Part shown: positions 24,886-41,767 of the stretch, piece after piece
Position numbering within the stretch: position 1 is the stretch's first letter
Layout of the letters: every line of letters begins with the position of its first letter
DNA from: an uncultured Granulicella sp.
Lineage (GTDB): Bacteria > Acidobacteriota > Terriglobia > Terriglobales > Acidobacteriaceae
NCBI GenBank assembly: GCA_937873265.1
Contig: CALMVL010000072.1
Span: 2,557 to 66,556, forward strand
Length of the DNA stretch: 64,000 nucleotides
Reading direction: 5' to 3'
Notes under the pieces: model-generated
The model's input: only the letters and a program-made list of their open reading frames with translations
The model's database searches: none
What the model was told of the DNA's origin: nothing
Position numbers and translations under genes: made by a program

Positions 24886-25297
24886 GATGGGCCTAACTAG
24901 TGTAAATGCGCGAGATCCGCAAAGGATTCAGCGGGCGGAAGATGCGCGGCGTGCGGAGGGTCGGTTTCTCGCCAACGGAGGTGGCCTTGGAGGCATGGCA
25001 GCTGATTCACCTAGGGGAAGACGAGTTGCCGGCAGGTCTTCGGGCTGTGGAAATGCGGACGTGGTGAGATTGCTCGGGGGTGCGTTTGGGTAAGCCGGTG
25101 CGGAGGAGCGTGTGACCGTCTCCATTCGGACCTGGGCTGGGTGATCGATTCCAGTGCTCGGCTTCGCGACAAGTGCGACGAACTATGGCTGTCGCAATGC
25201 TGAGGCTCGGTCTGCCGGATCGGACGGCGAAGACAGGCGCGGCTAGTCTGGATTTGGGGGTCTGAGCTTTTGAGCGGAGATGCGCGAGAATGGAAGA

Positions 25298-25498
25298 ATG
25301 GCGAATCTGACGTTGGTCTATGGCATGCGGCTGCTGCCGGCAGATGAGGTGGCAGAGGTGAGTGAGGCTCCGATTAAGCTGAAGAACGGTAACGAGGCGC
25401 GGGTAACGATGCACGTGCTTGAGGGGTCGCGGGAGCAGATTGAGGCGCAGTTGAAGCTGAGTCTCGATGCGTTTTTTGATCTGTATCCGGAGATCTAG
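25298..25498 (+). CDS. Small hypothetical protein
   Basis: MANLTLVYGMRLLP...TMHVLEGSREQIEAQLKLSLDAFFDLY; globular-looking composition and typical codon usage. Confidence 0.65.
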   Translation: MANLTLVYGMRLLPADEVAEVSEAPIKLKNGNEARVTMHVLEGSREQIEAQLKLSLDAFFDLYPEI

Positions 25499-25613: not shown

Positions 25614-26183
25614 TCAAAGACGGACGCTCAGGACGAAATCGTCATGCAGGGTCGTTCCCACGAGGAACTGCCGCGTGCCGATGATCTCGAAGCCGTGCCG
25701 ATGGTAGAAGCTGATGGCGGCATGGTTCTGGCCGTAGACGCCGAGCAGCAGGCGGGGGGCGCGGAGTTGCCGGGCGCGGTCCATGGCCCACCGGAGAAGC
25801 GCACCGCCGCAGCCGTGTCCCTGAAAGCGGTGAAGCATATAAATTCGCTTAAGTTCGAGGTCGCGCGGTTCTGGGAGGACGGGGAGGTCGGGCGGGCAGA
25901 GGACGGCGTAGCCCACGGGGGCGCCGGTTGAGGTCTCGGCGAGGCAGCAGGCGGCCTCTGGGTGGGTGAGCCAGGCGGTGTAGATTGCTGGGGCATGCTG
26001 GTGTTGGCTGTGGAGGAGGATGTCTTCGCCGGTGAGGACGTGCGCGTAGCTTTCAAGGAAGGTAGAGCGGCCAAGGAGGGAGAGACGGTCGGCGTCGGCG
26101 GGGGTGGCTTCGCGGAGGTTTGGGAGCGGAAGTGGGGGTTCAGTGACCCGGGGTGCTTGGGGAAGGGAGGCTGAAGTTCTCAC
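25614..26183 (-). CDS. GNAT N-acetyltransferase (PaiA-like)
   Basis: ELKRIYML, FQGHGCGGALL, LLLGVYGQNHAAISFYHRHGF. Confidence 0.88.
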   Translation of the reverse strand: MRTSASLPQAPRVTEPPLPLPNLREATPADADRLSLLGRSTFLESYAHVLTGEDILLHSQHQHAPAIYTAWLTHPEAACCLAETSTGAPVGYAVLCPPDLPVLPEPRDLELKRIYMLHRFQGHGCGGALLRWAMDRARQLRAPRLLLGVYGQNHAAISFYHRHGFEIIGTRQFLVGTTLHDDFVLSVRL

Positions 26184-26353
26184 GGGCTGATTGTAAAAGA
26201 GACTGCCTCTGGGCTGGGAACGTCCGTAGGTGCCGGCTGAGGACCGTTGGGGAGGTTTCGTCCGTGCTCACCACTTACCGACACAGATTTTGGGGAAATA
26301 CGACTGGGTTGCGTCATACTCAGAGCTGCGTCGCCAGCGTTAAAGGAGCGCCT

Positions 26354-26935
26354 ATGCAGAGACCCGTGTCCGTTCCCATCTCCGTAGCTCGATTGCCACG
26401 TGTCGCCCGTGCAGGCCTAGGCGGCCTTTTGTCTGTGGTGCTGTCCGGTGGATGTCACTTCGCGCCGCCGGCGAACGTCAAAAACCTGCAAAAGGGAATC
26501 GAGCGATACCTGGCGGAACACCCGGATTGTTTGTATAAGCAGGCATTGCGATTTCCGTACGAGACCTCGTCGAAACCGGAGATAGCGCAACTGGACACGC
26601 TGGTGAATGCAAAGCTGCTGGAGCGGGGGACGGAGCCGGCGATCCATGTGAGCCGGTACTCGGTTTCAGACTACGGCGCGAAATCGGCGCCGCGGTTCTG
26701 CTATGGGTATCGAGAGGTGACATCGATCGAAAGCTTTACCGCACCGGCCAAGGGGAGTGATGGTTTTATCGAATCGCAGGTGACGTACAACTACAAGCTG
26801 CGGGACGTTCCGGTTTGGGCGAAGGATGCGGACGTGGAGAAGATGTTTTCGGATGAGGCGAAGGAGCTGACATCGGCAGCGCCGGCGACGTTGACTCTGG
26901 CCCAAACAGGAGCCGGGTGGCAGGTGCCGGAGTAG
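26354..26935 (+). CDS. Putative lipoprotein, hypothetical
   Basis: AAGGAG RBS before ATG 26354; hydrophobic stretch ending LSGGC (lipobox-like); two further Cys (DCLY, RFCYG). Confidence 0.65.
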   Translation: MQRPVSVPISVARLPRVARAGLGGLLSVVLSGGCHFAPPANVKNLQKGIERYLAEHPDCLYKQALRFPYETSSKPEIAQLDTLVNAKLLERGTEPAIHVSRYSVSDYGAKSAPRFCYGYREVTSIESFTAPAKGSDGFIESQVTYNYKLRDVPVWAKDADVEKMFSDEAKELTSAAPATLTLAQTGAGWQVPE

Positions 26936-26946
26936 CGGAGGCGGGG

Positions 26947-27429
26947 TCAGAAGACGGGGATCTTCGGCGCCTTGCGAATTCCGAGAACGTTGAAGTCCCG
27001 TAAGCGGCTTTTGAGCACGTAAATCAGGCGATTGTTACCGTTCGGGTCGGTGGGCATCATGAAAAAACCCTCGCCGAGAACGTGATCGTGCGTATTGCTG
27101 ATGAGACCCTCGATTGCCTCGCCGTCATGGAACCGCACACGGACCCAGAGACCTTCCATCACGGGGGCGTTTTCGTGAAAATGCAGAGCGCGATGGTTAA
27201 GGTCTCCGTCGAAGGTGCGAACAAAGAAGATCGCCTTCGCGTCGCGCACATGAACGTCTCGAACATCGCCGGACTCCGGGGATGTGAGCCGGATCGAGTC
27301 AAGCGGATGTTGCGGCGCATTGCGCAGAAGCTGCTCGACCGTGCCAAGCTCGCTGGCCTGGGCAAATCCGCGAATCGCGTGGTCCTCGAAGCGAACGACG
27401 ACTTTGTAGGTGACGGGTCCGCCTTGCAC
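26947..27429 (-). CDS. DUF6982-like hypothetical protein; GTG start inferred
   Basis: YKVVVRF...IRGF, AKAIFFVRTFDG, VRVRFHDGEAIEG, GFFMMPTDPNGNNRLIYV; begins 11 nt after the stop of the sigma-54 activator. Confidence 0.7.
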   Translation of the reverse strand: MQGGPVTYKVVVRFEDHAIRGFAQASELGTVEQLLRNAPQHPLDSIRLTSPESGDVRDVHVRDAKAIFFVRTFDGDLNHRALHFHENAPVMEGLWVRVRFHDGEAIEGLISNTHDHVLGEGFFMMPTDPNGNNRLIYVLKSRLRDFNVLGIRKAPKIPVF

Positions 27430-27440
27430 GCTGGCCGTCC

Positions 27441-28868
27441 CTAGGCTGCTCCTGGCGGCGATAGATCGTACTGCTTGATCTTGTAGAGCAGCGCCTTGTA
27501 ACTGATCTGCAGATCGTTTGCTGCCGCCTTCCGATTCCATCCGACACCCTCCAGGACCTGCTGAATTGCGCTTGCCTCTGCGGAACCCTTGAGGCTGCGA
27601 ACCATTTGCTTCAGACCACGGCCGCTGCTGCTATTGTCCATGCTGTGGGCGGAGACATGGTCGCCTACGGACCCCGGCATCAACTCTTCCAGGATGGCCT
27701 GCTCTTCACCAAGGACGAGGTAGCGGTTGATGACGTTTTCGAGTTCGCGGATGTTGCCGGGCCACGTGTACTCGGTCAGCGCGTGGGTGAGATCGGGAGA
27801 GAAGGTAAGCGGATCTCTGCCGTACCGCTTTGCGGCTTTTCGCATGAAGTAATCGGAGAGGACTGGAATTTCTTCCTTGCGATTGCGCAGGGCGGGAATG
27901 CTAAGGGTAAAGCCGTTCAGACGGTAGTAGAGGTCCTCGCGAAAGGTCTTTTGCGCCATCGCCTCTTTCATGTTGATATTTGTCGCGGCGATGACGCGGA
28001 CATCGACCTTCATGGGAGAGCGACTGCCCAGGCGCGAAAACGTGCCATCCTGCAGAACCTGTAGCAGCTTGGCTTGCAGTATGGCGGGCATCTCTCCGAT
28101 CTCATCGAGGAAGATCGTTCCCCCGGTACAGATTTCGAATTTTCCGGGTTTGGTCTTGACTGCGCCGGTAAAGGCTCCTTGTTCGTAGCCGAAGAGTTCG
28201 CTTTCGAGCAGATCGGCAGGCACGGCGGCGCAGTTAACCTTGAGAAAGGTGTGCTGGCTGCGCGAAGACATCTTGTGGGTGTAAAGCGCGAGGATTTCTT
28301 TGCCGGTTCCGCTCTCGCCGAGAATCAGGACAGGGATGTCGGCTCGGGCGACAAGGGACGCCTGCTGCTCGAGTTCGCGCATGCGTTTGCTGGAGCGGAC
28401 GAAGGAGTGATTCTCGGTGAGCGGAACTTCTTTGGGGGCTTCGGTCACGCTGCGACGCTCTGTCAGCGCGAGGTGTTCCTCCACGGCGGCTTCGACGTCG
28501 CTTCCCAGAAAAGGCTTCATCACGATGCCACGCACGCCGAGGCGAATCACCATTTCGAGATCCTTCAACTCAGCGGAGCAGGACAGGACAACAACGGGAA
28601 GTTGCGGTTTCGTGGTTCGGATGGAAGTGAGTAGAGGGAGGGGATCGCGGGTTGCGTGCAGGGCAAGAAGGAGAAGCTCGGGAGAGTCGCCATGTGCGAG
28701 ACGACTCAGGAAGAGTTTTTCGTCCGAGAAGCAATCAAGCTTGTACCGGCCTTCAAGAGTGGACTTCAGGTAGTCCAGTACGGCGATATCCGGCTCCAAG
28801 ATCATGACCTGAGCTGGGGATCGGCTTGGCTTGGCAGAGGCAGGTGAGAACGACAAAGTAGTGGACAT
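27441..28868 (-). CDS. Sigma-54-dependent enhancer-binding protein with atypical receiver domain
   Basis: GESGTGKE, ESELFGYEQGAFTGA, IFLDEIGE, FREDLYYRLN, WPGNIRELEN, Fis-type HTH (WNRKAAANDLQISYKALLYK); REC-like N-terminus; GGGAG RBS. Confidence 0.93.
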   Translation of the reverse strand: MSTTLSFSPASAKPSRSPAQVMILEPDIAVLDYLKSTLEGRYKLDCFSDEKLFLSRLAHGDSPELLLLALHATRDPLPLLTSIRTTKPQLPVVVLSCSAELKDLEMVIRLGVRGIVMKPFLGSDVEAAVEEHLALTERRSVTEAPKEVPLTENHSFVRSSKRMRELEQQASLVARADIPVLILGESGTGKEILALYTHKMSSRSQHTFLKVNCAAVPADLLESELFGYEQGAFTGAVKTKPGKFEICTGGTIFLDEIGEMPAILQAKLLQVLQDGTFSRLGSRSPMKVDVRVIAATNINMKEAMAQKTFREDLYYRLNGFTLSIPALRNRKEEIPVLSDYFMRKAAKRYGRDPLTFSPDLTHALTEYTWPGNIRELENVINRYLVLGEEQAILEELMPGSVGDHVSAHSMDNSSSGRGLKQMVRSLKGSAEASAIQQVLEGVGWNRKAAANDLQISYKALLYKIKQYDLSPPGAA

Positions 28869-29255
28869 GCGTGCTCCCTAAATGACTGGTTCGGATTCGC
28901 TGTCCGAAACTTGCCAGAGGCAAGAGACCAGATGAGGGTGAAGGTTGCGCCGGGTTGACCTCACAGTGCGGAGGCGATCGGATCGCTCCGGTGTGCTGGG
29001 GACGATTCTAGCCGGACGCACATCTGGAAAGGAACAAAAATGTTAAGTATTTTGCCGACGAAGGGTGGAAACATTTACCACTTTTCCAAATTGGGAAAGA
29101 AAGGCTCGACATCTTGCGGTCGCTTGGTCGGTGGAGAGGCTACGGAGCTGAACTGCGGCGTATGATGGCGTTGACTTCCTTCCAAGCAGACTTTGCGTGA
29201 CGAGTGCGAACCGTCATGTCCGCTCAGGTGACCCTTGGTTGGGACTAGGTACGAT

Positions 29256-29271
29256 TGGCGATCTACGTGCA
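29256..29271 (+). promoter_or_regulatory. Candidate sigma-54 (-24/-12) promoter of the second activator gene
   Basis: TGGCGATCTACGTGCA: GG at 29257-58 and GC at 29269-70 with canonical 10-nt spacing, 57 nt upstream of ATG 29328. Confidence 0.5.
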
Positions 29272-29327
29272 CGGACGAAGGGTGCTGTAGCGCTCTTGTT
29301 TTGTTTGACGACTTCTACTCTTAGGAT

Positions 29328-30431
29328 ATGACCTTGGTTTCCACGACACTTTCGCCGAGTTCTTCGCAATTTCCGCCTTTGGACATCCTTTTTGGCAAGA
29401 CCCCGGCCATGCAGACCGTTCGCAACAAACTGGAGCGGGTTGCGGAGACGGATGTTCCGGTGCTGTTTCAGGGCGAGAGTGGAACTGGAAAAGAGATTTG
29501 CGTTCGTTTATTGCACGCGACGTCTTTGCGGGCGAAGGGGGCGCTGGTCAAAGTGAGTTGCCCGGCCATCCCGCATTCCCTGCTGGAAACGGAGCTCTTC
29601 GGGTATGAAAAGGGGGCGTTTACGGGGGCGCTCATCACGAAATTGGGCCGTGTGGAGCAGTCCCACATGGGAACTCTTTTTCTCGATGAGGTGGGAAGTT
29701 TGGATCTAGCTGTTCAGTCCAAGCTGCTTCAAGTCTTGCAGGACGGAACCTTCACGCGAGTCGGTGGGCAGGAAGCACGGTCGATTGCGACTCGGTTGGT
29801 TTCGGTTGCCAACGCCGATCTGCGCACCCAGGTGGATGAGGGAACGTTCCGTCTCGACTTCCTGTACCGCATTAATGCAGTGACCATCAGTCTGCCCCCG
29901 CTCCGGCAGCGTATCTCGGATCTGCCGGTCCTCATTGACTATTTTATTGAGCAATATGCGCGCATGTTTCATCAGACGCCGGAGCTGTTGTCGAAAAGCG
30001 CGATCCGGCTGATGCAGGGGTATCACTGGCCGGGCAATATTCGACAGCTGGAAAATATGGTGCGCAGCTATGTTTTGATCGGAAGCGAGGAGGCGTTGGT
30101 CGCGGAGTTGATGCCGGAGGAGTCGCGGGGCGGCATCACAACAGAACTCGACCTGAGCGAGCCGGTTTCACTCAAGCGGATCACGAAACGGGCGACGCAA
30201 GATCTGGAACGGCAGATCATTTTGAAGGTGTTGCAAGCGAACCATTGGAACCGGCAGAAGACTGCTAAGTGGCTGCAGATGAGTTATCGCTCACTACTCT
30301 ATAAGCTGAGCGAGGTTGGGATGCCGGGAGTTCCGCCACGGCCGATCCGGATGCCGCAGCTCTCAAAGCGCGAGGGAGATGGGGCGGAGCGGGAGGTCCG
30401 TCCCGCGATTGCGCGTCCACGGGCGTTTTAG
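29328..30431 (+). CDS. Sigma-54-dependent enhancer-binding protein without N-terminal sensor domain
   Basis: AAA+ domain begins within ~25 aa; GESGTGKE, ETELFGYEKGAFTGA, LFLDEVG, FRLDFLYRIN, WPGNIRQLEN, HTH WNRQKTAKWLQMSYRSLLYK. Confidence 0.92.
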   Translation: MTLVSTTLSPSSSQFPPLDILFGKTPAMQTVRNKLERVAETDVPVLFQGESGTGKEICVRLLHATSLRAKGALVKVSCPAIPHSLLETELFGYEKGAFTGALITKLGRVEQSHMGTLFLDEVGSLDLAVQSKLLQVLQDGTFTRVGGQEARSIATRLVSVANADLRTQVDEGTFRLDFLYRINAVTISLPPLRQRISDLPVLIDYFIEQYARMFHQTPELLSKSAIRLMQGYHWPGNIRQLENMVRSYVLIGSEEALVAELMPEESRGGITTELDLSEPVSLKRITKRATQDLERQIILKVLQANHWNRQKTAKWLQMSYRSLLYKLSEVGMPGVPPRPIRMPQLSKREGDGAEREVRPAIARPRAF

Positions 30432-30491
30432 TTCGATTTTGCGGTCTGAGCTAAACACGGCGCGGCTGAAAGTGAGGCAACAAAGAGGACG

Positions 30492-31868
30492 TTACTGAGC
30501 TCCCCGGCGGCGCAGGATCGTTTTGACAGTTTCGAACATAATCAGCAGGTCAAGGCTGAGCGACATGTGCTTGATGTAGTAAAGGTCATATTCGAGCTTT
30601 TGTCGTGTTTCCTCCAGTGTGGCGCCATAGCCGTAGCGAACCTGTGCCCATCCGGTGAGGCCCGGTCGGATCATGTGGCGGAGTTCGAAATACGGGATCT
30701 GCTCAACCAGCCAGGGCACGAACTCCGGGCGTTCGGGCCTGGGTCCAACGAAGCCCATGTCTCCGCTGAGCACGTTCCAGAGCTGGGGAACTTCATCAAG
30801 GCGCGTTTTGCGCATCAGCATGCCGAGCCGTGTGACACGGGGATCGTTCTTCGTTGCCCACTTCGCTCCGGCGATCTCGGCGTCTTGCCGCATCGTGCGA
30901 AATTTGACGACCTGGAAGCTCCGCCCGCCCAGGCCAACGCGAGTCTGTCGGAAGAAGATCGGTCCTGGAGAGGAGATCTTTACCAGAAGCATGATGACGG
31001 GAAAGAGGGGAAGGAACAGCAGCAGGCCGATGGCGGCAGCAATCGTCGACGCGATGCGGCGAGCGATCTGCTGAGAGGGCTTGATGCGAAAACCTTCGCT
31101 GTAGATGAAGCTGCTGGGGCGAAGGCCGTCCAGCTGTAGCTTTCCGGAGAGGCGCTCCAGCAGGGTGCCGGCCTCCTCGATAATGACACCATCAAAGCGA
31201 AGTTTGAGGAGTTCGCGAACGGGGAGCGCGCCGCGTCGGTCCTGCAGGGCGACGATAACTCGATCGATCTTGGGTTTTGGACCACGAAAGGATTCAAGAA
31301 TGTCGGCAAAATCCTCACGACTCTCGGAGCGATCTGAGGGGAGGTCGTTCCATCCGATGACCGACATGCCGGCGTCCTTGCGGGAGCGAAGCATTTCGAC
31401 GATGGTTTGCGCTCGTTCCCCAGCGCCGAGCACATAGACGCGTTCGCGAAAGGCGCCCCGGCCGAGGAACCATTCGTAGGCGCTGCGCCAGACGACGAGG
31501 GCGGCGGTGAGGAATGCGAGGCCGAGCAGGAGGACGTAGTGGGCGATGTCCGCGGCCGGAAACAGGTATGTAATCGCGGAGAGAAGAAAGGAGAGAAAGC
31601 CAAGGACGAGCAGCAGGCGGAAGTAGATCTCCCAGCGTTCCGAGATGCGCTGCGGCTCGTAGAGATCGAAGTAGTAGGAGCAGAGCAGCGTAACCGCAGT
31701 CAGGAAGAGAATCTTAAGGGCGCCGTACTCGTAGCTCAGCACCAAGTACGTATCGGGACCAAGGACGAGGGCAGTCGCCAGCAGAAAAGAGCCGCTGACG
31801 ATGAGTGCCTCGCAGAGCAGAAGCACGATGGTTCGGGTTGGGTAATAGACGTTAAACAGTCGAATCAT
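30492..31868 (-). CDS. Priming polyprenyl-phosphate glycosylphosphotransferase, TIGR03013 XrtA/PEP-CTERM type
   Basis: MIRLFNVYYP N-terminus with TMs; KFRTMR, DPRVT, RKTRLDEVPQLWNVLSGDMGFVGPRPERP, RPGLTGWAQV, DLYYIK. Confidence 0.93.
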   Translation of the reverse strand: MIRLFNVYYPTRTIVLLLCEALIVSGSFLLATALVLGPDTYLVLSYEYGALKILFLTAVTLLCSYYFDLYEPQRISERWEIYFRLLLVLGFLSFLLSAITYLFPAADIAHYVLLLGLAFLTAALVVWRSAYEWFLGRGAFRERVYVLGAGERAQTIVEMLRSRKDAGMSVIGWNDLPSDRSESREDFADILESFRGPKPKIDRVIVALQDRRGALPVRELLKLRFDGVIIEEAGTLLERLSGKLQLDGLRPSSFIYSEGFRIKPSQQIARRIASTIAAAIGLLLFLPLFPVIMLLVKISSPGPIFFRQTRVGLGGRSFQVVKFRTMRQDAEIAGAKWATKNDPRVTRLGMLMRKTRLDEVPQLWNVLSGDMGFVGPRPERPEFVPWLVEQIPYFELRHMIRPGLTGWAQVRYGYGATLEETRQKLEYDLYYIKHMSLSLDLLIMFETVKTILRRRGAQ

Positions 31869-32839
31869 GGAAGCGTGCCTGCGTGTGCCTGCTCCTGCCG
31901 GCTATCGTACCCATAGTAGGAGCCGAGCTGGGGAGCTTTCGCAACGGCGTTGAGGACAAACCCGAGGAGATTTGCGGTTTTGAGCTGTGCCTGGGCCTGC
32001 TGCGCGGTGGTGAACTGGGTGACTCCGGAGCGGGCAACGAGCAGAACCCCGTCGGCGGCGCGGGAGTAATTGACAGCGTCGGAAACCGGAAGGACGGGAG
32101 ACGAGTCGATGATGATCCAGTCGAAGACGGCCCCAGCATTCTGAAGAAGTTCCGCAAAGCGCGGGCTGGCAGAAAGATCGGAGGCTCGGTCTCCGCCATC
32201 TCCGCCGGGGATGAGGGTAAGGTTGGCGATCCCGGGCAGGTTTCCCCCGCTTCCATTTTTCGGCGGCGCACAGCGTTGCATTACCTCCTGCATGTCGGCG
32301 CGGTTGGCGAGATAGTCGGCCAGTCCAGGGTGCGGGTCGCAGCCGAGCACCTTGTGCAGTGTGTAACGGCGCATGTCGCCGTCGATCAGGAGCACTCTGC
32401 TGTTGCGGTTGCGAGCCAAGCTGAGGGCGAGATTGGTCGCGACAAAGCTTTTGCCCTCCTGGGGCAGACCGCTGCTAATCAGGATGGACCGCATTGGCTT
32501 GATGTCGCGGAGCTCATAAATGCGGGAGCGGAGACTGCGGAACTGTTCGACTGCGGGGCCGCGCTCGAGCAGAGCGGGGAGCGCGGCGAGGTTCGGATCC
32601 CAGGGGCGGGCGCACACAGCGTCGACGTCCAGACCGAGAGGGGAATGGAAGGTCTCCGGAATAGGGAGCGGAGCAGAGGGAAAAGAGTCGTTCTCGAGTT
32701 CTGGCTCGGGCTCCGCGAGAGCGAGAGCGGCGGCGGCTCGTGCGTGGTAGCCACGAGTGGGCTCTTCGCGAGTGGGCAGAGAGCTTCCTGAGGCTCTTTC
32801 GGATTCTGCTTTCTGGAGTGCTTCGTAGATGCGGCTCAT
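31865..32839 (-). CDS. CpsD/CapB-family BY tyrosine kinase
   Basis: MSRIYEALQKAE, EQFRSLRS, QEGKSFVATNLA, LLIDGD, IIIDSSP, C-terminal Tyr cluster SYYGY. Confidence 0.92.
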   Translation of the reverse strand: MSRIYEALQKAESERASGSSLPTREEPTRGYHARAAAALALAEPEPELENDSFPSAPLPIPETFHSPLGLDVDAVCARPWDPNLAALPALLERGPAVEQFRSLRSRIYELRDIKPMRSILISSGLPQEGKSFVATNLALSLARNRNSRVLLIDGDMRRYTLHKVLGCDPHPGLADYLANRADMQEVMQRCAPPKNGSGGNLPGIANLTLIPGGDGGDRASDLSASPRFAELLQNAGAVFDWIIIDSSPVLPVSDAVNYSRAADGVLLVARSGVTQFTTAQQAQAQLKTANLLGFVLNAVAKAPQLGSYYGYDSRQEQAHAGTLP

Positions 32840-33783
32840 CGTTCGCGCCTTCCCGTCAGTTCATTTCCTTGCACTGCTGCAAAGGCCGTTGGCTCGGCCA
32901 CGAGGGGGCGCGGGGAGCCGGTGGGTATGCCGTTCATGGCGGCAGGAGAGAGCAGGAAGGGCTGCGACTCGAGTTCGAGTTCGGCTGCCACTCCCTCGAC
33001 AACCTTGGGGGAAATCTGCTGGAGCTGTTCCACATAGCCAACGATGAGGGCATGCTCACAGAGCAGATTGATGATGCGCGGAATGCCTCGGCTGTAGCGG
33101 TGAACGGCGTCGAGGGCTTCCGGTGTGAACAGGGTCCAGGTGGCCCCGGCGATGCGGAGCCGCTCGGCGACGTAGGCACGGGTCTGGACTTCGGTGAGCG
33201 GCTGGGTTCGGCACCAGAGGGCAACGCGTTGGCGGAGCTGGCGCACGGAGGGGTGCCGCAGTTTCTCCTCGAGTTCCGGCTGACCGGAGAGAACAATCTG
33301 GAGCAATTTTTCGGAGCTGGTCTCGAGGTTCGTCAGAAGCCGGATCTCTTCGAGCAGTTCCCAGGAGAGGTTCTGCGCTTCATCGACGACGACAACGCAG
33401 GTGTCCTGCATGCGGAACCGCTCGATAAGCCATCGGTTGAGCTGAAGAAGCATGCCGGACTTGGTGCGCGAGGTAGGGGTGAGGCCGAAGTCGCTGAGCA
33501 CGAACTCGAGAAAATCAAGCGGCTCGAGCAGGGGATTGAAAACAAAGGCAGTCGAGACCCGGCGCGCCTGGAACGAAGCGAGGGCGCGGCGAAGCAGGGT
33601 TGTTTTGCCGGTGCCAACCTCTCCGGTGAGCACGGTGAAACCCTTGCGCGCGGAGATGCCATACTCCAGGCAGGCAAGGGCCTCGCGCGTGTGCGGCATC
33701 ATGTAGAGGAAACGCGGGTCGGGGCTGGTGCCGAAAGGGCTGCTTTCGAGTTTGTAAAAGCTGTTGTACATGGGTTTAGGCAC
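32836..33783 (-). CDS. ExeA/GspA-like AAA ATPase (TIGR03015-like, XrtA-associated)
   Basis: PFGTSPDPRFLY, TGEVGTGKTT, VVDEAQNL, LEEIRLLTN, SGQPEL, GIPRIINLLC. Confidence 0.92.
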   Translation of the reverse strand: MPKPMYNSFYKLESSPFGTSPDPRFLYMMPHTREALACLEYGISARKGFTVLTGEVGTGKTTLLRRALASFQARRVSTAFVFNPLLEPLDFLEFVLSDFGLTPTSRTKSGMLLQLNRWLIERFRMQDTCVVVVDEAQNLSWELLEEIRLLTNLETSSEKLLQIVLSGQPELEEKLRHPSVRQLRQRVALWCRTQPLTEVQTRAYVAERLRIAGATWTLFTPEALDAVHRYSRGIPRIINLLCEHALIVGYVEQLQQISPKVVEGVAAELELESQPFLLSPAAMNGIPTGSPRPLVAEPTAFAAVQGNELTGRRER

Positions 33784-35362
33784 CTGCGCTCAGGGGTTTT
33801 CCGCTGACGGATGTCTGCTTCCCACGCTTCCAGAACCGAAGTCTGGAGGTGCGGGCTCCACCACCGTCCGGAGCAGGCTGGGCGGCGGCTCCGTCGTTGA
33901 GCGAGAGGATGGCGAGGGTGGGAAGCTTGGTGAAGGCCCAGAGATCGCGCTCGCTGCGAATGACGGTATCACGGTATTCGAGAAGAGCAATGATGCCAAG
34001 ACCGAGTGCAAGGCCAAAGAGGAGACCTCCTGTGGCGAAGACGCTCCGTTTGGGAAAGGCCGGCGAATCGGGCAGGTTGGGCTCGTCCATGATGCGGAAC
34101 TGCTCGCCCTGCTGTCGTTTTTCGAGATCGACGGCCATCTTTGCCTGCTGGCTCTGCTTGAGCAGGTCGTCGTAGAGCTGTTGTGAGGTTTGGTGATCGC
34201 GGGTGATGTTGGCGTATTCCTGTTGAACGGCGGGACTCGAGGAGATGCGGTCCTGGTACATATGGATCTGGCTCTGGATGCCGGCCTGGTCCCGCCTCTT
34301 CTGAAGAATGCCCTGGTCGGTGGCGTTGAGGGAGGCGCGCAGCTGCTGCACGGCTACCGGTTCATTGCGGGGCACAGCCGCGCTCGGGGTGGACGCGGCT
34401 GGAGCGGGGGCGGGCGCCTGCGCCATCTGTTTGCGGAGCTCGGCGATCTTGCGGTCGACGGCGACGACGTCCGGGTAATCGGCAGTGTAGCGATTGGTCA
34501 GGTCCGCCTTCTGCGCGAGGAGATTCTGCAGCTCAAGCTGTTTCTCCTGAGGGGCGGCGCGCTGCTCTCCCGCCGGCCCTGTTGCAGGCGGGAGATCGCG
34601 GGACTGCTGGAACTGTTGGGACTGCTGCGCGAGCATGGACGCCATATAGCTGCGATCCTGTTCCATGCGCGTGAGCGCCTGGGTGGCGGCGTCGAGTTGG
34701 GTGTTGAGGCTTTGCAGCATGCCCATGTTGGCGGAGTCTTCGCCTGGAAGTCTGCCGACATAGGTCTGCTGGAATTTTGCGAGCTTGGCGTCCTGATCGT
34801 CGAGGTTGCGCTTGGCGTCGTTAAGCTGCTGCTTCAGGAAAGCAGTGGTCCCTTCTGCGGAATCCTGCTGATCGGTGTTGCTTTGATTGATAAACAGCGA
34901 GGTGATGTCGGCGCAGACGAGTTGCGCGGTGTGGGCGTCGCTTGCCTTGAAGGAGATGAAGAATCCAGGCAGGCCACCGGCGCGCGCGACCTCCGACTGA
35001 ATCGGCTTGATGTCGATGTTTTTGCGGGTTGCGTCGATGCGGTCGTCCATGGAGATATGTCCGCCGCCGTACAGGTTGTATTTTTCAATGATTGGCTGGA
35101 GCCGTGAGCGGCTTAGAATTTGCTCTTTCATCGAGGCGAGACGGCTGTTGAGGTCTTCGGTCACGACGGGCATGACGTACTTCTCAGGGACCTTTTGTTG
35201 CTCGATCAGAACAAGGGTCTGCGAGACGTACTGGGGCGAGAGCAGATAGCTGCACGCGAAGGCGATAACAGGAAAGAGGATCCCAGGGATCAGGATGATC
35301 CAGCTGCGCCGCTTGAGGATGGTGAAGTAATCTTCGCGGGTGAGTGGCCGATGACCGAGCAT
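33776..35362 (-). CDS. Polysaccharide co-polymerase/chain-length determinant (Wzz/GumC)
   Basis: N- and C-terminal TMs flanking a coiled coil; ILSRSRL, YTADYPDV, GEQFRIMDEPNLP; AAGGAG RBS. Confidence 0.92.
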   Translation of the reverse strand: MLGHRPLTREDYFTILKRRSWIILIPGILFPVIAFACSYLLSPQYVSQTLVLIEQQKVPEKYVMPVVTEDLNSRLASMKEQILSRSRLQPIIEKYNLYGGGHISMDDRIDATRKNIDIKPIQSEVARAGGLPGFFISFKASDAHTAQLVCADITSLFINQSNTDQQDSAEGTTAFLKQQLNDAKRNLDDQDAKLAKFQQTYVGRLPGEDSANMGMLQSLNTQLDAATQALTRMEQDRSYMASMLAQQSQQFQQSRDLPPATGPAGEQRAAPQEKQLELQNLLAQKADLTNRYTADYPDVVAVDRKIAELRKQMAQAPAPAPAASTPSAAVPRNEPVAVQQLRASLNATDQGILQKRRDQAGIQSQIHMYQDRISSSPAVQQEYANITRDHQTSQQLYDDLLKQSQQAKMAVDLEKRQQGEQFRIMDEPNLPDSPAFPKRSVFATGGLLFGLALGLGIIALLEYRDTVIRSERDLWAFTKLPTLAILSLNDGAAAQPAPDGGGARTSRLRFWKRGKQTSVSGKPLSAGA

Positions 35363-35371
35363 TACGACTCC

Positions 35372-36697
35372 TTAGAACTGACCGAGACGGGTGGCTCGCG
35401 GACTGAACGAGACACCGATCCCGAAGGCGTTTGAGAGGCCGCTGAGCGCGGCGGAGTTGAGTCCGGGCGCGTTGCTCAGGGATTGATCTTGAGCGGTGTA
35501 GCTGACGAAGCCAGAGAGAGTATCGGTAAAGCGACGCGAGAGCTGAACGCCGGAATACTCGCTCGAGATGGTGCCGCTGGAGAAGTACGGTGACAGCAGG
35601 GGATTGTCGTTGATGGCGGCTCCGCCCTGCGAAAGTCCGCTGTTGTGGAAGTAGGTTTGTGAAAGACCCAACGCCCAGCCGCGGCCGAAGTTGCGTCCAT
35701 AAACGGCCTGGACGCCGGTGGACAGGGCTCCGGGTTGAGCGCCGGAGCCACCGTTGACGCCGCGTGTGAAGTGAACGCTGAGAGTGGTTGCATTGCGAGC
35801 GTAGGCGATGCCGGCATCGGCGGAGACGTCGAGTCGCGAGGGGATCGCGAGCGATGCCGAACTGCTAACCCAGAGCGGGCCCGCGGACGCATCTGCCGTG
35901 AGGTTTCGGGTGAGGCGTCGGGAGAAGCCCGCGGTCAGGCCCTTGCTAATGAACGAGGAAGAGCCGGGGAAGGAGAAGACGGAGTAGTTGGCGCTGAGTG
36001 TGCCGCTGTCCCGAGCGTCAAACTGGTGCGTGAGGGATGCGCCGGCGACAATCTGTGTACTGTCGAGCCCGTAACCTCCCAAGAAGCGCAGAATTCCGTA
36101 GCTGCCGGTGCCGCTGAGGGAGGTGTTCGCGTCCAGGTGCCGCGAGACCTGACCACTGACGGAGTTGCTCACACGTGAGCTGTCGGTGGCGAGGACGTCT
36201 TGCGCGGGCTCATCTCCCGTGGAAACGGGCTGGGAGCCCAGGTCCCCTGTGCCGGGGACGCCGGAGAGGCCGACGGTCGGCGACGAGGGCAGATAGCTGA
36301 CCGAATCCGATGCTTCAAAACTCCAGCCGCGCGTGTTGAAGCCTTGCGCGAGCGTGAGGCTCTGGAAGAAGGTTGTGGATTCGCTGCTCTGATTGCTGAT
36401 CAGCACCCCTCCGGCGTAAACGGCAGAGAAGGGCCGGGCAGCGTTCTTGGTGTTATAGATGACGTCGCCCGAGAGATTGGTGCTGTAGTAGAGGTTGCTG
36501 TTTGCGCCGTACCCGGTCTGGATAATCTCGGAGGCATTGAGGGCATAGTCAAGCTGGCCGTCGATCAAAGGAAGCGATCGCAAAGGCTGGAAGGGTGTGG
36601 GCGTAGCCGTGGCTGTGGGTACGGCCTGGGCGCCCGCGGAGGACGCGAGGCAAAGAACGGCCGAAAGTAAACGAACGTGTTGCACGGGAGATCTCAT
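35372..36697 (-). CDS. Putative outer-membrane beta-barrel of the EPS export system
   Basis: Signal peptide; alternating amphipathic beta-strand pattern rich in S/G/Y; terminal strand FGIGVSF; lies between wza and wzz. Confidence 0.7.
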   Translation of the reverse strand: MRSPVQHVRLLSAVLCLASSAGAQAVPTATATPTPFQPLRSLPLIDGQLDYALNASEIIQTGYGANSNLYYSTNLSGDVIYNTKNAARPFSAVYAGGVLISNQSSESTTFFQSLTLAQGFNTRGWSFEASDSVSYLPSSPTVGLSGVPGTGDLGSQPVSTGDEPAQDVLATDSSRVSNSVSGQVSRHLDANTSLSGTGSYGILRFLGGYGLDSTQIVAGASLTHQFDARDSGTLSANYSVFSFPGSSSFISKGLTAGFSRRLTRNLTADASAGPLWVSSSASLAIPSRLDVSADAGIAYARNATTLSVHFTRGVNGGSGAQPGALSTGVQAVYGRNFGRGWALGLSQTYFHNSGLSQGGAAINDNPLLSPYFSSGTISSEYSGVQLSRRFTDTLSGFVSYTAQDQSLSNAPGLNSAALSGLSNAFGIGVSFSPRATRLGQF

Positions 36698-37446
36698 GGG
36701 ACCACAACGGTATCACCGGGCTGAAGCAGGATGTCCTGCCGGCTATCCCCTTTGAGCGCCTGTTTGTAGTTGAAGAAGATTTTTTGCTCGTGCCCCTTCG
36801 CTCCGCGCAGAATATAGATGCGCTTGGAATGCGCGAAGGTCGTGAGGCCGCCCGCGGCAGAGATAGCCTGGAGCAGAGTCATTTCAGAGCCGAGGTTAAG
36901 CGGGCCGACCTTGTTGACCTCACCGACGAAGTAGGCTCTTCGGCTATTCACGCCCGTCACGAGTACGGAAACGATCGGGTCCTGGATGTACTTCTTGAGC
37001 CTGCCTGTGATGTCGCTGGTTAACTGCGTGGGCGTGTTGCCGGCTGCGGGGAGATCGCCCAGCAGCACCATCGAGATCATGCCGTCGGGACGAACGGGGA
37101 CGGTTCCGCTGAGCGTCGGTTCCTTCCAGACGGTAATCTGCAGATTGTCTTCCGGGCCGATGATGTAGTGAGTCGGGTCCACTCCCGGCGGGGTGGCGGC
37201 GGCGGAAAGCGGTTGGCTGCTCGCGGGAGCGGGGACTGTTGGCGACTGGGTGGGAACCGTCGCGACCGGAGCGGGGGCTGGGGAAACGGCGGGCGCGGGC
37301 GCGGTATTCTGCTGCGCATAGACCGGAGCGAAGGAAAAGAAGAGGGCGGCGACCGCAGAGACATAGGAACCGCAGTGCAGGACTGGCGCGTCGGAGAATC
37401 GAGCTTTGCTGGCGAGGCGTCGCCGGTGGAATTCCAGAGAGTGCAT
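36694..37446 (-). CDS. Polysaccharide export protein (Wza/OPX, short form); start approximate
   Basis: YIIGPEDNLQITVW, VRPDGMIS, VGEVNK, LQAISAAGG, LQPGDTVVVP; signal-like segment ending VYA-Q, then a Pro/Ala linker. Confidence 0.9.
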   Translation of the reverse strand: MHSLEFHRRRLASKARFSDAPVLHCGSYVSAVAALFFSFAPVYAQQNTAPAPAVSPAPAPVATVPTQSPTVPAPASSQPLSAAATPPGVDPTHYIIGPEDNLQITVWKEPTLSGTVPVRPDGMISMVLLGDLPAAGNTPTQLTSDITGRLKKYIQDPIVSVLVTGVNSRRAYFVGEVNKVGPLNLGSEMTLLQAISAAGGLTTFAHSKRIYILRGAKGHEQKIFFNYKQALKGDSRQDILLQPGDTVVVP

Positions 37447-37507: not shown

Positions 37508-37523
37508 TGGTCGTGCGTTTGCA
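37508..37523 (+). promoter_or_regulatory. Candidate sigma-54 promoter of the exosortase operon
   Basis: TGGTCGTGCGTTTGCA: GG at 37509-10 and GC at 37521-22 (TTGCA -12 element), canonical spacing, ~205 nt upstream of ATG 37729. Confidence 0.45.
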
Positions 37524-37728: not shown

Positions 37729-38700
37729 ATGGCCATCACAGCAGGCGGTCTTCCGGCCACCTCTTCCATTGAGGTCGGCGAAAATCCGATAACGGCAGGT
37801 GGGCGAGTTTCCGCGCCTGCCGGGCAGCCCGGTGTGGGCGAACGGAGTGGCCGCCCCAACTCGGTTCTGCATCATTGGGCCCCGATCGCGATGATCGTTG
37901 TGCTGCTTGCGGCGATGTACTTCCGGATCGCGGCGAAGCTGGTGACGGACTGGTATGAGATCCCGGATTTTTCGCACGGATTTCTGGTTCCGTTCTTTGC
38001 TGCGTTTCTGGTCTGGGATCGACGGAAGGTGCTGGGGGCTGTTCCGCTGCGGCAGAGCTGGGCGGGCATTCCCCTGATTGTGTTTGCCCTGGCGATCCTG
38101 TTCGTTGGCGTCTATGGAGCGGAGCTGTTCTCGTCGCGGCTCTCCTTTATTCTGCTCACCGCCGGTCTGATCTGGACGTTCTTCGGATCGCGGATGCTGC
38201 GCGAGCTATGGTTTCCGCTCGCTGTTCTTCTGCTCGCGATCCCCATCCCCGCGATCCTGTTCAATCGCATCACATTTCCGCTGCAGCTGATGGCGTCCGA
38301 GGTTGCGAGCAACGTGCTGCCCATGCTCGGTGTACCGGTGCTGCGCGACGGCAACGTCATTCAGCTGCCGATCATGCGGCTGGAGGTCGCGGAGGCATGC
38401 AGCGGGATTCGGTCGTTGATGAGCCTGTTTACGCTTTCCGTGTTCTACGGCTACTTTACCGAGCGAACAACGGCACGGCGATGGATTCTGGCGCTGGCCA
38501 GCATTCCCATTGCCGTAACCGCGAATGTTGCGCGCATTGTGGGAACCGGGCTCTGCGTACAGTACTGGGACCCGTCGAAGGCGGTCGGGTTCTTTCATGA
38601 ATTTTCTGGCTGGGTGATGTTTCTGGTATCGCTCGGCTGCCTGTACTTTGTGCATCGCGCGATGGAGTTGATTCCGGTACGAAGGGCGGCGACGGTATGA
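37729..38700 (+). CDS. Exosortase (EpsH/XrtA family)
   Basis: FSHGFLVP, LLAIPIP, FPLQ, GVPVLRDGN, catalytic Cys VAEACSGIRS, Arg ANVARI, His FFHEFSG; multi-TM; TAAGGA RBS. Confidence 0.93.
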   Translation: MAITAGGLPATSSIEVGENPITAGGRVSAPAGQPGVGERSGRPNSVLHHWAPIAMIVVLLAAMYFRIAAKLVTDWYEIPDFSHGFLVPFFAAFLVWDRRKVLGAVPLRQSWAGIPLIVFALAILFVGVYGAELFSSRLSFILLTAGLIWTFFGSRMLRELWFPLAVLLLAIPIPAILFNRITFPLQLMASEVASNVLPMLGVPVLRDGNVIQLPIMRLEVAEACSGIRSLMSLFTLSVFYGYFTERTTARRWILALASIPIAVTANVARIVGTGLCVQYWDPSKAVGFFHEFSGWVMFLVSLGCLYFVHRAMELIPVRRAATV

Positions 38701-39350
38701 TCGGCGCGCGTTACCTTGTGGTTCTGCTGCTGTTGCTTGGGTCCACCGGTGTTCTGCTCTCGCGGGGCGATACCGATCGCGTACCGATGAGCGCACCGTT
38801 GGCAGAGATGCCGGAGGACATCGGGCAGTGGCACGGGCACGATATCGCGATCGCGGATGACGTCCTGGCCATTCTGGGCAAGGGCGACTTCCTGAATCGG
38901 GTTTACACGTACGGGCCGGGCGGAAATGCGGGCGTGATGCCGATCAGCTTGTTTATCGGCTACTTTGCCACGCAACGGACGGGACAGGCGATTCATTCGC
39001 CGCAAAACTGCTTGCCCGGGGCGGGATGGACGTTTCAAAGTTCGAAGTACGCCACGCTGACGGCGGCAAACGGGAAGAACTTCAACGTTGGGGAGTACAC
39101 CATTGCGAACGGGGATGCCCGACAGTTTGTTTTGTACTGGTATCAGGCTCATGGGCGCAGCATTCCGAACGAGTATGTGTCGAAAGCGTACATGGTCGCG
39201 GACGCAATGCGGCTGCGGCGAACCGATGGTGCGATTGTGCGCGTAATCACCACGATCGCTCCGAACGAAACGCAGGACGAGGCACGGAAGCGGGTCTTCG
39301 CCTTTACGGCCCAGATGGCTCCGTCGCTGCCTCGATTTATACCCAACTAG
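38697..39350 (+). CDS. epsI: Exosortase-associated EpsI-family protein
   Basis: IGQWHG, LFIGYF, IHSPQNCLPGAGW, VLYWYQ, RTDGAIVRV; ATGA overlap with the exosortase. Confidence 0.9.
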   Translation: MIGARYLVVLLLLLGSTGVLLSRGDTDRVPMSAPLAEMPEDIGQWHGHDIAIADDVLAILGKGDFLNRVYTYGPGGNAGVMPISLFIGYFATQRTGQAIHSPQNCLPGAGWTFQSSKYATLTAANGKNFNVGEYTIANGDARQFVLYWYQAHGRSIPNEYVSKAYMVADAMRLRRTDGAIVRVITTIAPNETQDEARKRVFAFTAQMAPSLPRFIPN

Positions 39351-39439
39351 ATAGCGAGCTGTCTGCACGACGGGTTCTCGAGATACGGAAACATGCACCT
39401 GTGCAAGCTAGACCGCGCTAACGAATAAAGGACTGGATC

Positions 39440-41767
39440 GTGATGGAGAAGCACGGAAGAATGTCAGCAACGATGAAACGCAAGGTGGCGAGGGCCGTTC
39501 GCATTGGCCTGTGGAGCACGGTCTTGTCGGCGTCTCTGGTGACGGTGGGCTGTCATCGCGATCCCAACGTGCAGAAGCAGAAGTACCTGGAGAGCGGCAA
39601 GCGGTATTTCAAAGAGGGCAAGTATAAGGAAGCGAGCATTCAGTTTTCGAATGCGCTGCGTGTCGACCACAACTTCGCGGACGCGCATTACCAGCTGGCG
39701 ACAACGTATCTGAAGATGGGTTCGCCGATGCCGGCCTACGCGGAGCTGAGCCGCACCGTTGCTCTCCAGCCCAATAACGTTCCGGCGCGCGTCGATCTCG
39801 GTAACCTGCTTTTGGCGGGCAAGCAGATTGATCGCGCGGGCGATCAGGCCAAGGCGATTCTCGCAATCGACAACAACAACGCCGATGCGTACGCTCTGTT
39901 GTCGGCGGTGGCAGCCGCGCATGGCAATAGTGCCGAGGCGCTCGCGCAGATCCAGCATGCGTTGGCGATCCAGCCGGATCGGGCTTCTTTCCACACCGCG
40001 CTTGGCCTGCTGCAGCTGCGCGACGCGTCGGGAACCGCGCCAGCAGAGGCGGAGCTGCGCAAGTCGATCGCGCTTGATTCGTCGAATGTGACGAGCCATC
40101 TGGTGCTGGCCGCGATTCTCGAACGACGGGGCGATCTGGCCGGAGCGCTTGACCAGCAGAAGCAGGCGGTGGCCGGGGATCGCAAGAATGTGAGCGCTCG
40201 CGCCAGCCTGGCGCAGATGTACCTGCGGCAGAACGACAAAACCAACGCCGAAGCGACGCTGCGGCAGGCCGCGGAGGATCTGCCGGATGACCTGACCGCG
40301 AGTCAGATGCTGGGAACGTACTACCTGCAGACCGGGCAGGGGGACAAAGCGGAGTCCGCCTATGCCGATCTTGCGAGCAAGCACCCGAAGAGCGTGCCGC
40401 TGCGGCTGGCGTATGCGCACATTCTGATGGCGAAAGGAAACACCGACAAAGCCCGCGGAATCGCTGCCGATCTGGCCAAGACCGACAGCTCCGACCCAAA
40501 TGTCGCGATTCTGAATGCGACGCTGCAGATGCGCGACGGCAAGGCGAAGGAAGCATTCGACACGCTGCAAAAGGCGGCCAAGAACAACCCGGAGAACATA
40601 GGCGTCAAAATCTGGCTCGGACGGGCGGCTCTGGCCAAGGGCGACCTGAATACAGCCCAATCCAGTTTCACTGATGCTTCGCGCCTGAGCTCCTCGAATA
40701 TGGAGGTGCAGGACGGTCTGGCGCAGGTGGCGCTTCAGAAGCACGATTCGAGCCTGCTCCGGCAGGTGGGTGAGCAGGCCATCGCGCAGCATCCGCAAGC
40801 CCCAGCGGGGTACATGTGGCGCGGCATGGCCGAGGGAAACTCGCAGGAGTATGACAAGGCTGGCGCCGACTTTCAGCACGTGTTGACGCTCGATGCGAAA
40901 AATCCAACGGCATACCTGGAACTTGGCGTGTTGAAACTGAACGAGAAGCGTTTCGACGAGGCGAAACCGTTGCTGGAGCAGGCTCTGAACGCTGATCCAA
41001 ATCTGGGACGAGCTCTGGCTTTGCTGGTGGATATTGATCTGTCGCAGAAGCAGCCGCAGCGGGCGCTTGACCGCATCCAGGCACAGATCGGCAAATCGCC
41101 CCAGAATGGGGCGATGTACGGCCAGCTTTCCCAGGTGCAGCTGCAGATGGGCAACGCTGCCGGAGCGGCGGACTCTGCCCAGAAAGCCATGCAGCTCAAT
41201 CCCGCGGACAACGGGGCCGTGCTGGCATACAGCCGGGCCGAAATCGCCCAGGGGGACCCGGGCAAAGCCATCGGAGCCTGGCAGCAGTGGCTTTCAGCCC
41301 ATCCTGGAGACGCGCAAGCCGATGCGGTTCTGGGCTCGCTTGAGCAGGCGCAGGGCGACCGCGACAAAGCGATGAGCTACTACAAGGACGCGCTAAAGGT
41401 GCAGCCCGACCAGCCGGTGGCCCAGAATAACCTGGCTTACCTGATGGTCGAGTCGGGGCAGAACCTGGATGTAGCGTTGTCGTTGGCGCAGAGCGCGCAC
41501 CGCAGCATGCCGAATGCTTCCAGCACGGCCGACACACTGGCCTGGGTGTATTACCAGAAGGGTACGTATGGCTCCGCGCGCGATCTATTGGAGGATGCGG
41601 AGAAGGAGGCGCCAAACGACCCGGCCATTCAGTATCACCTGGGCATGACTTACCGGAAGTTGTCCGACGAGTCGGACGCGGTCCTTCACCTGAAAAAGGC
41701 TGCTCAGCTCTCCCCGAACTCCGAGGCGGGTAAGGATGCGCAGAAGGCGTTGGACCAGCATGCCTGA
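39440..41767 (+). CDS. Tetratricopeptide-repeat lipoprotein (PrsT-like)
   Basis: Lipobox-like LVTVGC; TPRs along the whole length; NNLAYL and ADTLAWVYY C-terminal motifs. Confidence 0.88.
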   Translation: MMEKHGRMSATMKRKVARAVRIGLWSTVLSASLVTVGCHRDPNVQKQKYLESGKRYFKEGKYKEASIQFSNALRVDHNFADAHYQLATTYLKMGSPMPAYAELSRTVALQPNNVPARVDLGNLLLAGKQIDRAGDQAKAILAIDNNNADAYALLSAVAAAHGNSAEALAQIQHALAIQPDRASFHTALGLLQLRDASGTAPAEAELRKSIALDSSNVTSHLVLAAILERRGDLAGALDQQKQAVAGDRKNVSARASLAQMYLRQNDKTNAEATLRQAAEDLPDDLTASQMLGTYYLQTGQGDKAESAYADLASKHPKSVPLRLAYAHILMAKGNTDKARGIAADLAKTDSSDPNVAILNATLQMRDGKAKEAFDTLQKAAKNNPENIGVKIWLGRAALAKGDLNTAQSSFTDASRLSSSNMEVQDGLAQVALQKHDSSLLRQVGEQAIAQHPQAPAGYMWRGMAEGNSQEYDKAGADFQHVLTLDAKNPTAYLELGVLKLNEKRFDEAKPLLEQALNADPNLGRALALLVDIDLSQKQPQRALDRIQAQIGKSPQNGAMYGQLSQVQLQMGNAAGAADSAQKAMQLNPADNGAVLAYSRAEIAQGDPGKAIGAWQQWLSAHPGDAQADAVLGSLEQAQGDRDKAMSYYKDALKVQPDQPVAQNNLAYLMVESGQNLDVALSLAQSAHRSMPNASSTADTLAWVYYQKGTYGSARDLLEDAEKEAPNDPAIQYHLGMTYRKLSDESDAVLHLKKAAQLSPNSEAGKDAQKALDQHA

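Follow-up and report, generated by a model that had tools for sequence, protein, structure and literature searches.

The 64,000-nucleotide stretch analyzed here (hereafter the window), from an uncultured Granulicella sp. of the Acidobacteriaceae, carries three adjacent genes that encode a pair of bacterial enhancer-binding proteins (bEBPs), designated R1 and R2, and a small protein of the Pfam family DUF6982 (PF22478). Judged by its sequence conservation this trio is a real regulatory module, and it lies beside genes for exopolysaccharide (EPS) production and an XrtA-type exosortase (Table 1). Our best reading, which we hold with modest confidence, is that of a feed-forward switch in which R1 would activate R2, both activators would drive surface genes, and the DUF6982 protein would tune R1.

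The survey of synteny for which the earlier note on this sequence had called shows the trio to be kept as a unit. It is complete in 71 of 121 genomes of the genus, absent from 44, and represented by a subset in 6 that are mostly fragmented or incomplete assemblies (69 of 119 complete when the unpublished genomes G009 and G291 are left aside), and coordinate tables judged by eye place it on a single contig in 70 of the 71. A set of 80 trio loci, overlapping in part with the genomes sampled earlier, covers Acidobacteriaceae, Edaphobacter, Tunturiibacter and Granulicella, and the trio is carried by cultured strains too, among them Edaphobacter aggregans DSM 19364, E. modestus DSM 18101 and strains of Tunturiibacter. 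All domains are under purifying selection, with median pairwise dN/dS values of 0.026 for the AAA+ domain of R2, 0.062 for the pseudo-receiver of R1 and 0.078 for DUF6982. The proposed linkage to EPS and exosortase genes is borne out such that the priming glycosyltransferase TIGR03013 comes after R2 in 10 of the 11 trio loci retrieved first and in 52 of the 80-locus set, a GT4 glycosyltransferase being found there in 14 of the 80, and xrtA is present (E ≤ 1e-50) in 70 of 77 genomes that hold any trio gene. However, the trio does not head this locus, as had been claimed; it lies at the tail end of the wza-to-epsB EPS operon, with R2 converging on the last gene of the operon (TIGR03013) and xrtA located ~7 kb away.

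The two activators differ in how they depart from a canonical bEBP. R1 (475 aa) has a receiver–AAA+–helix-turn-helix (HTH) architecture in which Ala69 occupies the phospho-acceptor site, EPD makes up the acidic pocket, and the Pfam receiver score of 27.2 falls below the cut-off of 30.2. Among relatives in the 80-locus set the acceptor position is Ala in 74 of 74 and the pocket is EPD in 69 of 74, the other five having gaps; the receiver retains Ser96 and Lys118. R2 (367 aa) consists of AAA+ and HTH domains alone, and an upstream extension is impossible because its open frame is 368 aa, so that the description of one degenerate receiver and one protein lacking an input domain is accurate. The same note had regarded the motifs of both bEBPs as intact, which is correct for Walker A/B, GAFTGA and the R-fingers, as it is for sensor II and the HTH, but does not extend to every functional residue. 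The sensor-I threonine is part of canonical bEBP chemistry; R1 keeps both this residue and the glutamate-switch Asn, with Leu195 at the post-Walker-A Arg position five residues beyond the Walker A Lys, while R2 has lost both. Ser at the switch position and Ala or Ser at sensor I are present in 75 of 75 full-length R2 relatives. None of these 75 shows any change in GAFTGA, Walker B or the two R-fingers, and GSFTGA is found in two copies that are more distantly related. The N64S protein of PspF can still engage sigma-54, but its ground-state complexes are lost and it escapes PspA (PMC2731916, PMC4132715), and for this reason the Asn-to-Ser change in R2 does not prove impairment. The HTH stretches of R1 and R2 are identical at 12 of 20 residues, compared with 6–9 of 20 for five other HTH-bearing bEBPs of the genome, in agreement with the similarity first noted between them, and their recognition helices are nearly identical.

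A central question is how the two activators are connected. The sigma-54 −24/−12 pattern occurs 15–110 nt upstream of R2 in 39 of 46 orthologues, where shuffled sequences would give 1.16 and the opposite strand gives 0, and upstream of R1 in only 1 of 39; these counts leave out short flanks and five rows that are frameshifted or belong to a third paralogue, and the pattern was chosen after an earlier analysis step. In the 80-locus set the site precedes R2 in 74 of 75 loci. A de novo search of 53 R2 upstream regions from other genera resolved an 18-bp palindrome (log-likelihood 252 versus 22 for shuffled sequences at width 17), situated 135–175 nt ahead of the sigma-54 site in 40 of the 53, and the two boxes of the window belong to an aligned block conserved in 14 intergenic regions. 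The presence of a sigma-54 site and an enhancer upstream of R2 lends sequence support to the cascade that the earlier note had offered as one option. A sigma-70 scan of positions 26800–30600 returned 0 sites, and rpoN is found in the same genome.

The same elements are observed at a subset of candidate target promoters. Using a matrix learned without any xrtA sequence, xrtA promoters carry the palindrome at 17–25 bits with a sigma-54 site 86–140 nt downstream in 9 of 21 trio-bearing loci, eight of the nine representing one subclade. None of 19 trio-less xrtA loci reaches 12 bits (best 9.6), rpoN is kept in 5 of 5 trio-less genomes tested, and only 11 positions in the 3.6-Mb genome score 15 bits or more. 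A strict TGG pattern near the predicted xrtA starts had given 0 of 16, and the less stringent pattern that followed took the protein core as its anchor, which makes this test partly post hoc. A genome-wide scan for enhancer plus sigma-54 site gave 15 matches, mostly unconvincing, of which one PEP-CTERM gene (C339) fits.

The absence of a histidine kinase from the window is confirmed, in that no kinase domain is found among the 53 of its open reading frames (ORFs) searched first or the 9 of a later search. None of 24 kinase-domain matches in the genome, which is 73% complete, reaches the cut-off of TIGR02916 (PrsK). A cognate kinase is likewise found in 0 of 5 trio genomes (four near-complete ones and G000) as compared with 5 of 5 control genomes, and the PilZ gene in 0 of the same 5, for which no control was run alongside. 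Together with the Ala at every acceptor site, these results uphold the suggestion of phosphorylation independence. Five kinase matches in the 80-locus set were rejected as unrelated downstream genes of 25–36% identity.

The origin of this arrangement is apparent from the family at large, where an R2 orthologue is present in 145 of 201 genomes (the unpublished G064 included), whereas only 18 of the 201 have the regulator-linked DUF6982 (E ≤ 1e-25). In 40 of the 145 loci, sampled by score spread and contig size, R1 is found in 36, a small kinase directly before R1 in 30, PilZ in 28, DUF6982 in 2, and a core EPS/exosortase gene within 19 kb in 26. All but one of the 36 R1 proteins (35) have the acceptor Asp, and six kinases inspected have no evident sensor domain. 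The family norm is a sensorless kinase with an R1 that bears Asp, frequently accompanied by PilZ; the trio, without the kinase, is therefore a derived form, and on these comparisons its parent is the family-wide R2/PilZ/kinase-R1 cassette rather than PrsK/PrsR, which had been the initial reference. In a midpoint-rooted tree with SH-aLRT support only and no bootstrap, 21 kinase-less, DUF-linked R1 proteins form one clade (SH-aLRT 99) within which the acceptor decays in a graded manner, from Asp in basal rows through Glu in locus L076 to Ala in the genus; the R2 switch and sensor-I changes arise within this clade, and a second kinase-less R1 group is placed elsewhere. Among 15 DUF6982 loci of other genera, six have kinase, Asp-bearing R1 and DUF6982, seven are kinase-less, one meets a contig end and one is without R1. 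The existence of the first class implies that DUF6982 is older than the kinase loss, and its occurrence with kinase-bearing versions means that it is not a kinase replacement.

Several observations concern relatives of the parent cassette. Loci L093–L132 (e.g., L095:8643-13004) combine a sensorless kinase and an Asp-bearing bEBP with a divergent PilZ gene and sensorless bEBP and the 18-bp enhancer; this cassette is possibly what chiefly regulates EPS in Acidobacteriaceae, and no published description of it was found in literature searches. In the sister family R2 is often first in the wza operon, opposite either paired kinase and R1 genes or a stressosome cassette that brings another sensorless bEBP. 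Where the wza operon starts, that cassette (L054:5168-12585, also L056, L058, L060, L061 and L068) occupies a position between two sensorless bEBPs, or next to them, and contains RsbR/S/T/X, an RsbU_N-HisKA_3 kinase and a LuxR regulator. A third bEBP of the same HTH type, lacking GAFTGA and possibly a repressor or a sigma-70 regulator, directly precedes wza in some genera, at L079:11591-12505, L093:17744-18649 and L097:17457-18401.

The third member of the trio follows R1 as described in the earlier note, with a GTG start at 27429 that is 11 nt past the R1 stop; in 64 relatives this gap ranges from −4 to +74 nt. The AlphaFold model of the protein (pLDDT 83.8) consists of two small beta-barrels whose fold matches are weak: the best is to YaeO (Z 4.1, root-mean-square deviation 4.7, 62 residues aligned), Sm/LSm/Hfq proteins give Z 3.0–3.5, Tudor domains are also weakly matched, and Foldseek returned no match at E ≤ 0.001. 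The family is present in 122 of 301 phylum genomes. Its profile finds 1564 representatives, the best 150 of which are 85–261 aa, and no fusion was seen among longer proteins, which is a weak test. Seven long open frames from other Acidobacteriota contain no second Pfam domain and were set aside, four that were inspected being non-coding N-terminal extensions. Elsewhere, a housekeeping paralogue (L015, G000:C82:13234-16692) lies directly upstream of lpxD in two families and divergent from a poly(A)-polymerase-family gene. Within 20 hand-picked distant loci, a PilT-like ATPase precedes DUF6982 in 6, all of one family, and a ClpB-like ATPase is next in 5; the run PilT-like ATPase–DUF6982–TPR/ClpB-like ATPase is seen at L283–L286, L293 and L296, in an acidobacterial family other than that of the trio. 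DUF6982 adjoins a bEBP in three further distant loci, convergently in two. The ATPase neighbors hint, and do no more than hint, that DUF6982 could be an ATPase adaptor.

How does this module compare with known systems? By membership it is neither PrsK/PrsR nor HrpR/HrpS, and by analogy it most likely resembles FleQ/FleT with an added accessory protein. In Rhodobacter sphaeroides FleQ activates fleT and then works jointly with FleT (PMC7277832), and R2 similarly lies behind a sigma-54 promoter, here at the level of sequence; the likeness is one of promoter layout, and FleQ/FleT has flagellar targets and no DUF6982 accessory whereas the trio would have surface and EPS targets. The paralogous VnfA1 and VnfA3 of Azotobacter vinelandii share target sites, with one in the regulon of the other, and require the translationally coupled VnfZ for co-activation (PMC9542535), a role to which that of DUF6982 may be likened. 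However, VnfZ is a substrate-binding-protein homologue rather than a pair of modeled beta-barrels, and in the trio the coupled gene lies behind the upstream activator, which bears the pseudo-receiver. HrpR/HrpS/HrpV of Pseudomonas syringae also pairs partly degenerate bEBPs with a small trans-acting protein (PMC3105312), but HrpR and HrpS are tandem, both sensorless and 55–65% identical, while R1 and R2 are divergent genes at 41% identity, with a receiver in one of them. In Caulobacter crescentus, FlbD/FliX provides a divergent-receiver bEBP with no cognate kinase under the control of a small partner (PMC3096577); that system has a single activator and demonstrated binding, and the partnership of DUF6982 with R1 is a putative one. 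DUF6982 shares with FliX, HrpV and VnfZ the property of being co-transcribed or conserved with its bEBP. PrsK/PrsR likewise places sigma-54 and enhancer control at exosortase/EPS loci beside TIGR03013 (PMC1569441), and the trio has the XrtA/EpsI/PrsT/TIGR03013 linkage, but the membrane kinase PrsK, usually encoded in tandem, has no match above its cut-off in the 73% complete genome, and neither activator passes the TIGR02915 (PrsR) cut-off of 502.6 (R1 311.2, R2 269.1). The enhancers also differ, the trio having a GTGAAAA-nn-TTTTC-type palindrome and PrsR a 17-nt motif ending in TTTACA (PMC1569441), and R1 lacks the acceptor Asp of a phosphorylated NtrC-type protein. Finally, BerB/BerA of Burkholderia cenocepacia is a two-step exopolysaccharide cascade initiated through sigma-54 (PMC5552954) in which BerB binds cyclic di-GMP (c-di-GMP) and BerA is described only as a c-di-GMP-binding regulator, whereas the second tier of the trio is a bEBP.

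We hypothesize that R1, without a phosphorylation site, fires the sigma-54 promoter of R2, and the promoter evidence makes R1 a quite probable activator of R2. The two proteins would jointly drive the exosortase and other surface genes; surface and EPS genes are likely targets. They may do so as a mixed ring in the fashion of FleQ/FleT, an analogy that we offer tentatively. The input would be non-phosphoryl and is probably a partner protein that docks on the conserved pseudo-receiver. The small DUF6982 protein would tune R1, and its predicted binding to R1 or to the ring is plausible though somewhat doubtful. With a sigma-54 promoter of its own, an activator that has no sensor would need a brake or a partner, and the fixed switch and sensor-I changes of R2 would fit dependence on R1, as in FleQ/FleT or VnfA1/VnfA3/VnfZ. 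A bolder version, in which the relay found across the family, from a kinase through one activator to a second, was rewired into a phosphorylation-free, obligate R1–R2 mixed ring of complementary degenerate subunits gated by DUF6982, itself the first of a new class of small beta-barrel ring-ATPase adaptors, is improbable.

Several observations weigh against the feed-forward switch. The enhancer boxes of the window are weak, and the strong enhancer and sigma-54 pair is absent at xrtA of the window and of its three closest sampled relatives, as it is from 12 of 21 trio-bearing loci, including most of the second subclade. Of the PEP-CTERM genes, with 17 matches above the cut-off, only 3 of 16 examined have a clear sigma-54 site. 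A strict link to the exosortase is opposed by the retention of xrtA in 21 of 44 trio-less genomes of the genus, and the relatives counted are kin and hence not independent. Moreover, R1 and R2 form two separate old clades in the tree, unlike HrpR/HrpS, and no R1 residue tracks the presence of DUF6982 convincingly in 43 sequences.

The kept Walker A/B, GAFTGA and R-finger motifs of both activators would also suit a plain cascade of independent homo-hexamers, with R1 constitutive after loss of the kinase and Asp, R2 amplifying alone, and a co-transcribed DUF6982 employed in a separate task such as RNA binding or the envelope. The housekeeping paralogue before lpxD, the Sm/Hfq proteins among the weak fold matches, and the lack of DUF6982 in 38 of 40 R2-anchored family loci point the same way. 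We nevertheless consider this unlikely, as the strong conservation of the pseudo-receiver fits a retained input, DUF6982 is retained in nearly all kinase-less R1 loci of the clade, and the catalytic accessory residues of R2 carry fixed changes. Those same changes would also be in keeping with R2 as a negative-feedback element, induced by R1 and ending the response by occupying the same boxes or poisoning R1 rings, and a sensorless activator firing its own promoter would otherwise lock on; however, the invariance of GAFTGA, Walker B and the R-fingers in R2, and the position of a canonical R2 at the head of the wza operon in relatives, make this decidedly improbable.

What, then, might replace the lost input? 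Direct sensing by R1 of a small molecule such as c-di-GMP, in the manner of FleQ and BerB, would be in keeping with the frequent PilZ gene of the ancestral cassette and with the BerB/BerA cascade. FleQ requires R185 for c-di-GMP binding (PMC10723142), and this position is Leu195 in R1, which makes FleQ-type binding unlikely in a comparison limited to R185, the remaining contact residues not being reliably mappable; such sensing as a whole appears very unlikely. An orphan kinase encoded elsewhere could be sought among the 24 kinase-domain matches of the incomplete genome, and receiver Ser96 and Lys118 are retained, but with the acceptor position invariably Ala and the cognate kinase not found in four near-complete trio genomes or in G000 while found in every control, phosphorylation of R1 by this route is scarcely credible. 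The feed-forward switch remains the reading that we prefer.

Table 1 Features of the trio and the adjoining EPS/exosortase locus in the window.
Feature	Coordinates	Strand	Evidence or remark
Regulator-linked DUF6982 paralogue of 160 aa with a GTG start	26947..27429	-	Pfam E 1.8e-38, AlphaFold model
R1, bEBP whose receiver lacks the Asp (Ala69), with canonical AAA+ motifs and a Fis-type HTH	27441..28868	-	Pfam, alignment
First enhancer box, weakly matching (6.7 bits) the 18-bp palindrome from other genera	29041..29058	.	Matrix score
Second enhancer box, 23 bp from the first; 8.7 bits, genome p ~8e-5	29064..29081	.	Matrix score
Predicted sigma-54 -24/-12 site preceding R2	29256..29271	+	Pattern search across orthologues
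R2, sensorless bEBP (AAA+, HTH) with Ser77 for the switch Asn and Ala161 for the sensor-I Thr	29328..30431	+	
TIGR03013 XrtA-system priming glycosyltransferase, convergent with R2	30492..31868	-	437.7 bits, cut-off 393.35
Operon of wza (start inferred), outer-membrane protein, wzz, TIGR03015-like ATPase, tyrosine autokinase; candidate target	31865..37446	-	
Sigma-54-like site between wza and xrtA	37508..37523	+	No strong enhancer, unlike one subclade of relatives
xrtA exosortase, epsI (DUF3485), PrsT; candidate targets	37729..41767	+	

The window contains a complete XrtA-type locus (TIGR03013, tyrosine kinase, ATPase, wzz, wza, xrtA, epsI and prsT). Between wza and wzz lies an ORF of ~400–440 aa (35372-36697, minus strand) without a Pfam or NCBIfam match, whose position is conserved order-wide and whose product is probably an outer-membrane export protein. 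An Ig-like repeat protein of 1429 aa (43617-47906, minus strand) is a further candidate target, and its homologues lie directly 3' of R2 in L043, L090, L091, L146 and L147, replacing TIGR03013. On the other flank, a lipoprotein-like unannotated ORF (26153-26935, plus strand), convergent with DUF6982, has two paralogues in the genome and is retained in the closest relatives only, and an ORF of 72 aa without a Pfam match (25280-25498, plus strand) is 98% identical to the copy in the closest relative.

Literature searches, for which most subscription papers were out of reach, found no published account of this module, and searches on DUF6982 and on an Acidobacteriota PEP-CTERM exosortase likewise found nothing. 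For the EPS/exosortase genes of Acidobacteriaceae, for which the literature searched describes none, the analysis supplies candidate regulators together with a promoter and the sequence of an enhancer. It also proposes, for a Pfam family not yet characterised, a role that can be tested. Many soil acidobacteria keep the trio beside their slime (exopolysaccharide) genes, and in the lineage examined here both the kinase and the site of phosphorylation, which relatives retain, are gone. The natural series from kinase with Asp, through Asp without kinase and then Glu, to Ala offers a view of how a two-component system turns phosphorylation-independent.

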